Source: Moniliella sp. 'wahieum'
Lineage: Eukaryota
Assembly (NCBI GenBank): GCA_003971905.1
Contig: RSEE01000045.1
Location: 186,001 to 250,000 of the forward strand
Reading direction: 5' to 3'
Length of the DNA: 64,000 bases
The notes below the pieces were generated by a model that ran no database searches, was not told where the DNA came from, and saw only the letters and a program-made list of their open reading frames with translations. A program made the position numbers and the translations under genes. This document shows, in pieces, positions 25,041 to 27,015 of the stretch. Every line of letters starts with the position of its first letter. Within the stretch, counting starts at the first letter, position 1.

Positions 25041-27015
25041 TCAAGCTTCACGTTTTCTATAGCTTCAAGCTTCAAGCTTCAAGAGCTAGCTGTGGTGCTA
25101 GAGCGCACCTAGGTAGCTTTTCAAGCCTCAGCCTCAGGCCTCAGCAAGCCTCAGGCTGAGCTCCTCAAGGCCTCAAGCTCACAGCCTGTTGGGTGTTTGG
25201 GAGGGGAGTGGGGCAGCCTGAGCGCCTGAGCGCCCTGAGCGCAGAGAGGCGGTGAGGCTGTGAGGCCTGAGGCTCAGTCGGTCAGCGCGATGCCCCTGCT
25301 AGCACTGCAGCAATGGCGGCAGCAGCAGCCGAAACTTGCCGACCGCCTCGTAGTTTGGTCTCAGTTTCTCCGCACCCTTGTTCCTCTCGCTCCAGGGTTC
25401 CCGGAGAGGCCTGTGGTCCTGAGGCCTGATGCATGATGCATGACAATGCCATGTGACATGTATGACAGTTACTAGTTAAGCTTTAAGCTAGTTATGTCGA
25501 TGATCGAGTTACTCCGCGAATCTGGCTGCTGCATGCATTATGCACGTGTCGGACGTTCCCAACCAGCTTTTGGCCCGACAACTCCTACTAAACAGCACCA
25601 TCCACCACAACACCAATGTATGTCTCCACACACGCACCAGACATTGGAAGTTCGACAGATGTGTTCTGGTAGCTGTGCTTTCCCAGAGCCTCGAGCATAA
25701 GCGACGTGCATAATACACGGTATCCAGTACCGACTGAATTCTCAGTCTGAGTACTCACGGAGTACTGCGAGAGTATGAGCCTTGAAGCTTGAAGCTTGAA
25801 GCTTGATGCATGATGCATGCCGATTGAGTGAATTGATGATCAAATCGTAGTACTTAAAGCTTAATGGCCGATGTCAATTACCGGTGATCGATTACTCGTG
25901 TACCAGTGATCGAGTGATCGATAATCGATAGTCGGCAACCGGCAACCATCGATCGGTGGTCGGTCTTTGCCGGCTCGATGACGCCGACGAGCGAACGGCA
26001 ACATCGACACAGTGTGACATGTGGCGGAATTGGCGAGGGTTCAATCCACTAGCCGCAGTAGGCCACAGTCCACCCTGCTCAGCAGCTCAGCCGCTCATCG
26101 CGTACGGTACTACTTGGCATGCGCGCACCACTGACATGTTGAGCCACTGGGCCTGAGGCCTGAGTGTAAGTTGAACGTAACGCCGAGGCAGACGCGCTGA
26201 CGCTCCACGCTCTTCCGTTTCCTTTGATGTGGAGCATTGGAAGAGTGGATGTAAACTCCGTATACCTTTAGTACTGATCGTTGAACTTTGAAGCTTGAAG
26301 CTTGAATGAAACCGTTGCAGGAGGAAGGGCCACACAAAGTTTTTAAAGGTATTGACCAAGTGGGCCAACCGGCGGCCCCCGCAATTGCTCTAATGTGTCT
26401 GCTGAAAAGGATATAGGCGTGAAATCAATGATCGATGGCCCCTCTCAAGCTTCAAGTTGAACACGTGTAACCGGCTTCACCTGTCTCTCCATTCCGTATC
26501 TGCATGTGGGCCCAAGATACGTCGTCACTCAGTGGCAACTCCCATAGCCCCTCCCAGCGCTAGCAGCTTCGACAGGCGCCAATGGAGTTGAACGTTGCAC
26601 GTTGAACAACGGCCAAATTCTTCAGATGCACACTGTTGCACACCACGGAGCTGTTGATGTGCAATTGGAGACAATTGATGGATGAGATCGATGACGCGCG
26701 GGCGACTCGGTAGATCTCAGATGTCAGATCTCAAGACCCTCAGAGCGGCCCTAGGTGCGTCGCATGCCACATGTCACACGCCACCTTCGGCGTACATCAT
26801 GCATCAGACATCCATCCGCAGATCTCAAACGTAGCCATCATGCATCACATTATCACACGCCACACGTCGGATCGCGTCATACTGACCAGTGGCCGTACCG
26901 AGTACTGACCAACGACAGCAGAGTAGTGGTCTAGTGGTCGTACATAGAATGATGTATGATGTTCCGTAGCATTGCTGCAAATATCATACATCATGCATCA
27001 TCCATCATGCCATGT
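25041..27015. repeat. Dense field of 7-bp-period palindrome arrays (A-xyy'x'-T-N)n upstream of the MFS gene
   Basis: (AAGCTTC)n at 25061-25083; AGGCCT-G-ATGCAT-G-ATGCAT at 25422-25441; (AAGCTT-G)3(ATGCAT-G)2 at 25785-25819; ACCGGT-G-ATCGAT at 25880-25892; others. Confidence 0.85.

Follow-up and report, generated by a model that had tools for sequence, protein, structure and literature searches.

A class of 7-bp units defined by symmetry

In a 64,000-nucleotide stretch of DNA from Moniliella sp. 'wahieum' (GenBank contig RSEE01000045.1, positions 186,001 to 250,000; hereafter the window, numbered from its first letter) we found an abundant class of short tandem units in which a triplet T-S-A (TCA or TGA, rarely TTA) is followed by a 4-bp palindrome, the whole repeating with a period of 7 bp. 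The same unit can equally be described as a 6-bp palindrome of the form A....T plus one spacer base. There were 83 such units in the window relative to 7.5 in dinucleotide shuffles (200 shuffles, maximum 16), and the region 25000-27100 alone held 29 relative to 0.40 (1000 shuffles, maximum 3). Units with different inner palindromes also stand directly next to one another in the same 7-bp register, most of them one mirrored base pair apart. The explanation we favour, which seems to us quite possible but falls short of probable, is that these are lineage-enriched, very short tandem repeats that would arise by 7-bp duplication or slippage and be diversified by strand-symmetric change of the template-switch type. 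All of our statistics rest on this one 64-kb window. Neither slippage nor a single DNA-binding protein readily accounts for a class of this kind, defined by symmetry and not by sequence.

Both parts of the unit carry signal. Where two T-N-A triplets lay at spacing 7 (TNA-N4-TNA), the four bases between them were palindromic in 83 of 182 cases (46%), the corresponding counts being 13 of 139 for spacing 8 and 2 of 148 for spacing 9. Broken down by triplet, 10-mers of the type XYZ-N4-XYZ had a palindromic N4 in 35/53 cases for TCA, 22/42 for TGA and 6/14 for TTA; the other triplets listed mostly gave 5-18%, with TGG (24%) and CTA (27%, 3/11) intermediate. Non-palindromic N4 between two copies of a TSA triplet was not enriched (18 and 20 occurrences vs about 26 per triplet on average). 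The inner 4-mers themselves were diverse, 14 of the 16 possible palindromes being present, with AGCT the commonest (21/83). An earlier note on this DNA had proposed that a T-N-A lattice together with internal symmetry is what stays invariant, and had taken the chaining of different palindromes as its strongest evidence. The TCA and TGA counts bear out that lattice and symmetry both carry signal, but the lattice proved to be local, as described below. The weight placed on chaining was too great for five joints; the excess of units over shuffles and the 46% palindromic fraction are the stronger evidence.

The units qualify as short tandem repeats: exact period-7 runs of at least two copies numbered 50 vs 3.5 in shuffled sequence, and Tandem Repeats Finder lists many period-7 arrays in the window. 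Exact runs of other periods gave 7 vs 1.05 shuffled for period 8 and 48 vs 12.5 shuffled for period 6. In 24 of the 50 period-7 runs the unit consisted of a 6-bp palindrome with one base added, the palindrome having the A....T form in 23 cases. Scored against the T-N-A plus palindrome pattern, 23 of the 50 period-7 units were exact matches and another 11 came within one mismatch, the corresponding rates for random 7-mers of the window being 2.8% (exact) and 23% (within one mismatch). The arrays are short. The longest period-7 array has 3.7 copies, and the 83 units fall into 71 chains (62 single, 7 double, 1 triple and 1 quadruple) with 7 homologous and 5 heterologous joints. That the basic element is an odd palindrome with TSA at its centre was considered and ruled out, since 22 of the 29 such palindromes with arms of at least 4 were of the self-palindromic tandem type and the 7 non-tandem ones were at chance. 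There were also 8-bp variants with the same grammar, e.g., TGA + GCGC + C, TGA + TCGA + G, and GCCTCAGC-type runs (25216-25242, 25905-25921 and 57944-58010), which resemble units carrying a second spacer base.

The spacer base was equal on both sides in 65 of the 83 units (C..C 35, G..G 22, T..T 6, A..A 2), and complementary G/C spacers were found in 9 (G..C 6, C..G 3). The period-7 match also continued past the 10-mer, typically for two bases, in 52 of the 62 single units, as decayed duplications would; extension was seen in 63% on the left and 48% on the right, vs about 27% expected. Because the spacer base is copied, duplication or slippage belongs to the process and is no alternative to it.

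The extended match also bears on the idea that the units are transposon excision footprints, in which TSA would be a 3-bp target-site duplication, the palindrome would hold two bases from each inverted terminal repeat, and chains would form by re-insertion. Tc1-type footprints have such a layout, several DNA transposons insert preferentially at promoters, and the idea formally explains both the TSA direct repeat around a palindrome and the shared register. However, it does not predict the period-7 match past the 10-mer, which contradicts it; 14 inner palindromes would require as many element families, and inspection of 21.4-25.3 kb revealed neither long terminal nor inverted repeats. Pfam searches of 149 open reading frames (ORFs) of at least 85 residues in gene-poor regions, together with 10 of the 75 ORFs of at least 150 residues, found no transposase, integrase or nuclease domain, the lack of a transposase in the 149 speaking further against excision. 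We regard this origin as extremely unlikely.

A related possibility is that the units are scars of break and repair. Here a nuclease acting as a dimer, perhaps one related to transposases or integrases, would make cuts staggered by 7 nt around T-S-A. Filling in the gaps and joining the ends would duplicate the 7 bp centred on S, which of itself would yield a 6-bp A....T palindrome at the joint as well as a second target, and chains would in this way lengthen in register. Trapped topoisomerase II is known to give short de novo duplications via end joining in yeast, and as a matter of sequence geometry, duplicating an odd palindrome y'x'-TSA-xy yields exactly TSA-xyy'x'-TSA. Such scars would cover the period of 7, the anchor, the identical spacer and the many short arrays (a high birth rate with little expansion). 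The difficulty is that the original 7-mer must already be a palindrome of any bases, for which a protein needs base-specific contacts. In addition, a fresh 7-bp duplication must have seven period-matches, whereas most single units have fewer, and the lack of enrichment of non-palindromic TSA-N4-TSA argues against it as well. We consider this origin quite improbable.

Different palindromes share one register

Of the five heterologous joints, four fall within 25420-25894 and the fifth at 46001-46017. At 25420-25443 the chain reads TGA-GGCC-TGA-TGCA-TGA-TGCA-TGA (AGGCCT followed by two copies of ATGCAT), with G as the spacer throughout. The chain at 25469-25490, TTA-CTAG-TTA-AGCT-TTA-AGCT-A (ACTAGT joined to AAGCTT, then AAGCTA), keeps the unusual spacer T, while at 25783-25819 three copies of AAGCTT-G are in register with two of ATGCAT-G, again with G throughout. 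At 25878-25894, TTA-CCGG-TGA-TCGA-TTA joins ACCGGT to ATCGAT with spacers T, G and T, and at 46001-46017, TCA-TCGA-TCA-ACGT-TCA joins ATCGAT to AACGTT. The slightly shorter strings quoted in the earlier note (25422-25443, 25471-25490, 25785-25819, 25880-25894 and 46003-46017) are exact. In four of the five heterologous chains the spacer base is constant, including the rare T (25469-25485).

Joints of this kind numbered 5 in the window vs 0.025 in dinucleotide-preserving shuffles (200, maximum 1), and 4 in the region 25000-27100 vs 0.001 (1000, maximum 1). As the earlier note had expected, heterologous neighbours preferred spacing 7: among the 280 A....T palindromes of the window there were 6 heterologous pairs at this spacing vs 0, 1 and 1 at spacings 6, 8 and 9, a small sample that comes down to 5 independent full T-N-A joints, or 6 with the pair at 35284. 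Homologous pairs of the same palindromes numbered 12 at spacing 7 vs 0, 0 and 1. There was no spacing-7 peak for palindromes starting with C, G or T (1/2, 0/2 and 0/1 homologous/heterologous pairs, respectively), and pooling all 1031 6-bp palindromes diluted the effect (22 heterologous pairs at spacing 7 vs 16, 13 and 12). Within 25000-27100, the 48 A-class palindromes gave 4 heterologous pairs at spacing 7 over a local baseline with a mean of 0.91 (maximum 3), taken across spacings 6-70 with multiples of 7 left out (Poisson P = 0.014).

Could arrays that formed independently have come to abut by chance in a unit-dense region, with no symmetric swap of bases at all? That there are just five joints, four of them within a 2.1-kb stretch holding 29 units, would fit such an account, as would the modest P value of the local test and the flanks of AAGCTT arrays in metagenome assemblies, where palindromic in-register neighbours were near chance (5 of 239). 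However, scattering 29 units at random over 2.1 kb gives about 0.4 pairs at +7 (hand arithmetic) vs the four heterologous ones seen, the shuffles give far fewer still, and independent arrays would produce neither the spacer shared along four of five chains nor the single mirrored step seen in four of five. Chance abutment is in our judgement very unlikely, and the heterologous enrichment at spacing 7 is real despite the small sample.

The 7-bp register is confined to the contiguous chain. Between separate chains, 6 of 23 pairs within 60 bp stood at a multiple of 7 vs 3.3 expected; neighbouring chains are thus out of phase, which rules out a long-range lattice. A cloning-vector polylinker was also ruled out, since A....T palindromes alone are involved, the same sites recur in tandem, the units are spread over many intergenic regions, and like arrays occur in independent metagenome assemblies.

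Mirrored differences between neighbours and how they may arise

Neighbouring palindromes were one mirrored pair apart in four of the five joints, namely GGCC/TGCA (G/C to T/A), AGCT/TGCA (A/T to T/A), CCGG/TCGA (C/G to T/A) and TCGA/ACGT; the fifth, CTAG/AGCT, differs at two mirrored pairs. In the metagenome loci described below, four of five heterologous joints were likewise one mirrored pair apart, so that the pooled fraction of one-step joints is 8/10, vs 40% for random distinct palindromes (P about 0.012, hand calculation). Where the lattice is kept and neighbours are unlike at two inner bases, 8 sides (4 joints) were mirrored and 3 sides unmirrored, when about 11% mirrored would be expected from independent double changes. 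One-sided, half-step neighbours also exist (7 sides with the lattice kept and 16 without it), such as AAGCCT between AAGCTT and AGGCCT, and also AAGCT, at 25121-25180, indicating that the swap of inner bases need not be simultaneous. In these comparisons of neighbours within one sequence single mirrored steps predominate and mirrored doubles outnumber unmirrored ones, as if the heterologous neighbours had arisen by symmetric change. The argument of the earlier note that slippage cannot swap inner bases symmetrically is partly supported: the mirrored steps agree with it, but the half-steps and the copied spacer mean that duplication or slippage is nevertheless involved.

The favoured mechanism would have three steps. 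New units would appear, and increase in number, through tandem duplication of 7 bp or slippage during replication, as the copied spacer base and the period-7 match beyond the core suggest, since a shared spacer with an extended match points to direct duplication. Strand-symmetric change of the inner bases would then diversify the units, most plausibly when a point change in one half is mirrored onto the other via short-range template switching between the two strands during replication or repair; symmetry that is generic, with base identity left free, argues for copying from the complementary strand rather than for base-specific recognition. Different palindromes would in this way come to lie in one chain, inheriting the T-S-A register and usually the spacer base. 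A single template-switch event can fix both members of a pair (PMC8794818), and at yeast promoters such switching often expands inverted repeats (PMC13100816). If the mirrored changes are single events, the arrays would offer a dense natural read-out of short-range template switching in a eukaryote, and would show promoters gaining and reshuffling symmetric sites.

Several points weigh against this mechanism. Duplication and mirroring are both deduced from a single sequence. Hairpins are weak: homologous arrays would fold into a 5-bp stem closed by a 3-nt TSA loop (about -3 kcal/mol), z-scores vs shuffles ran from -0.01 to -2.7, and heterologous joints do not pair. We accordingly set aside hairpin stability as a driver, the folds being mostly no better than those of shuffles. 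Mutation alone does not account for the strict T-S-A anchor, the period of 7 or the bias toward upstream regions, and a purely mutational process fails to explain why non-palindromic TSA-N4-TSA is not enriched. Nor does it explain why 3.4 kb (21.6-25.0 kb) holds 3 units and the next 2.1 kb holds 30, and numerous arrays that all stop at 3.7 copies or fewer make an unusual length profile for slippage-driven microsatellites.

A bolder reading is a dedicated, sequence-anchored palindrome-writing process in this basidiomycete lineage, in which a factor at T-S-A in open promoter DNA would duplicate 7 bp and maintain the two-fold symmetry of the inner bases regardless of their identity; we hold this to be improbable. 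If true, it would amount to a promoter-targeted mutational mechanism so far undescribed, and would give promoters a renewed supply of in-register symmetric sites as raw material for dimeric regulators. The upstream accumulation may come from a promoter-specific mutational process or from retention by selection, and under either reading the class can be counted genome-wide and traced in strains.

Like arrays in metagenome assemblies

A scan of metagenome assemblies for AAGCTT-S x3 gave at least 121 loci. None of the 121 listed was orthologous to the window, only the repeats matching by blastn. Most of these loci had no general excess of the unit class and so were used as controls. In 31 of them with similar G+C (402 kb, each chosen for its AAGCTT-S x3 array) palindromic pairs, with AGCT left out, made up 53 of 742 (7.1%; 0.13 per kb), vs 62 of 161 (38.5%; 0.97 per kb) in the window. 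The AAGCTTG arrays elsewhere vary one-sidedly, e.g., ATGCTT, TGGCTT, CCGCTT and TAGCTT (locus L039), AGGCTT (L052) and CAGCTT (L086).

Some loci do contain chains like those of the window. In L047 (7699-7745), three copies of AAGCTT-C, two of ATCGAT-T, and ATCAAT are in register; in L087, AAGCTT-G x3 is joined to AGGCCT, and in L011 AACGTT is joined to AAGCTT x3. L047 is Agaricomycete-like, with a kinase frame whose closest named matches are in Laccaria (about 48%) and an Aspzincin_M35 domain. The eukaryote-like L079 carries TGAAGCTTGA at four separate places, including 4289, 9859 and 15489 besides the array, as well as AGATCT-G x2 and ACCGGT-A x2 (further listed positions are 4854-4870, 5685-5701 and 9999-10022), and TGAAGCTTGA occurs twice each in L004 and L026. 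One locus, L058, looks bacterial. Given the chains of L047 and L079, the grammar is not confined to the organism of the window, though it is much sparser in those contigs; by hand tally, the pooled unit density was near chance in contigs such as L047.

Units and genes in the window

The host of the window can be judged from its genes. A 767-residue Sec63 reading frame on the minus strand (29897-32200) has its closest named relatives in Testicularia, Sporisorium and Ustilago (50-54% identity), with one further match at 75%, and Pfam found eukaryotic or fungal domains on other reading frames. From these matches, the window is evidently nuclear DNA of an Ustilaginomycotina basidiomycete, i.e., a smut-related fungus. 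Gene limits are rough, having been drawn from a codon-usage score and Pfam matches; Rfam and tRNA scans of the window found no RNA genes.

The densest cluster of units (25010-27149; 30 of the 83) lies directly upstream of an MFS transporter gene on the plus strand (27337-29364; Pfam MFS_1), with a coding start at about 27337-27499 and TATAAAAG near the gene at about 27315. Inside the cluster are TGAGCGCC x3 at 25216-25242, the AAGCCT/AGGCCT mixtures at 25121-25180, and many one-mismatch and 8-bp forms. Two GT..AG introns of the MFS gene (27857-27917 and 27970-28031, plus strand) were placed with spliced contigs from one public run, which were ~96-97% identical to the exons. These contigs look like transcripts of a close relative or another strain. 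Over 17000-36000 the same run covered mainly MFS and Sec63 exons, at about 90-97% identity and with spliced joints; it was the one run listed as matching the stretch (8% of sampled words), no RNA run being among those listed, and its contigs span exons and not the repeat region.

A second cluster (56466-58724; 18 units by hand count) has no Pfam-recognisable gene nearby. Its arrays are ACTAGT-C (57365-57395), GCCGGT-G (57449-57473), AAGCTT-C (58049-58083), ATCGAT-C (58594-58610) and AAGCTT-G (58709-58724). The cluster falls within about 9 kb (53250-62600) that has no strong coding score and in which no ORF of at least 85 residues gave a Pfam match; this stretch might conceal genes specific to the lineage, or it might be regulatory or non-coding over its whole length. 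By hand tally, smaller groups occur at 6.96-7.41, 13.9-15.7 and 45.9-46.0 kb. The first is a divergent-promoter cluster (6964-7410) with ACATGT-C, ACGCGT-C x2.6 (7050-7067), AACGTT-C x2.3, TCATCGATCA and TCATGCATGA. The last includes an AAGCTT array with successive spacers G, C and C (45908-45924) and, at 45952-45966, an AGTACT-T array. The 46001 chain belongs to this region too and sits in a short stretch upstream of a minus-strand gene starting near 45618-45768. Units at 15487-15654 are upstream of an Aa_trans (amino-acid transporter) gene on the plus strand, which has an exon at 16483-16935 and seemingly extends over about 15.9-19 kb with several introns. Two perfect repeats unrelated to the 7-bp class were also seen, a (CCATTG) x8.3 array at 51317-51366 and a 24-bp x2.1 repeat at 10792-10841.

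Unit counts in coding segments were near chance, and a hand count put about 14 units in the 8.0 kb of divergent intergenic sequence vs 1 in the 4.2 kb of convergent (3'-3') intergenic sequence. This is suggestive of units lying mostly upstream of genes, a pattern that depends on the approximate gene models. The stretch adjoining the densest cluster (21610-25000), which is lower in G+C (about 0.50-0.52), looks non-coding, with no ORF of at least 150 residues, no Pfam match, and no long or terminal repeats. With only 3 units there, non-coding status alone is no predictor of units.

Such positions would be expected if the units were selected cis-regulatory arrays, with a protein or a family of related dimers that reads T-S-A and needs two-fold symmetry, and with chains serving as multi-site enhancers. 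The upstream bias would fit this, including the 30 units in the 2.3 kb before the MFS gene, as would the strict specificity of the anchor and the separate recurrence of TGAAGCTTGA in the eukaryote-like contigs L079, L004 and L026. Symmetry kept through mirrored change is moreover the outcome that selection on a dimer site would give. However, with 14 of 16 inner palindromes in use there is no base-specific consensus (only T-S-A is fixed), and a single dimeric factor cannot read such a set. The correlation of the spacer along a chain indicates copying and not independent recognition, and many promoters of the window have no units (e.g., 32132-32737, upstream of Sec63); the positional argument is itself weakened by gene models that rest on a codon-usage score. 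We judge selected arrays unlikely, but they are the main rival to the favoured mechanism. If the units are kept by selection, they would point to a so far unrecognised way of reading promoters in smut-related fungi. A heat-shock-element reading of GAAGCTTC was dropped by eye, as the same-base spacer leaves an imperfect half-site.

Comparison with known systems

The arrays share with microsatellites the head-to-tail copies, short arrays, imperfect end copies and restriction to non-coding DNA. They differ in that one period (7) and one grammar dominate, in being numerous yet at most 3.7 copies long, and in their mirrored variants. Clustered palindromic elements are also known from promoters, such as the yeast MluI cell-cycle box (ACGCGT) and the Drosophila DRE (TATCGATA), each of which is one sequence read by one factor. 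Like these, the units are short palindromes upstream of genes, sometimes in tandem, and ACGCGT-C x2.6 and ATCGAT units are among them; unlike these, 14 palindromes share one frame and the spacer is copied. Target-site duplications and footprints of transposons have in common with the units a short direct repeat flanking symmetric bases and a preference for promoters, but here the periodicity extends beyond a footprint, the inner sequences are too diverse, and no element or transposase was seen.

In searches of the open-access literature we found no description of this repeat class, and it would belong to no named element family. A close counterpart for the mirrored differences is template switching at quasi-palindromes (PMC8794818, PMC13100816), which creates or restores symmetry independent of sequence in one event and so fits differences of one mirrored pair. 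The known cases are isolated, looped inverted repeats, whereas the palindromes of the window are loopless, 6 bp long and set every 7 bp. Template switching alone would also give complementary flanks (G..C), in contrast to the same base seen on both sides, and does not predict the T-S-A anchor. Judged on its sequence features, the class is probably best placed as a variant of short tandem repeats combined with quasi-palindrome template switching.

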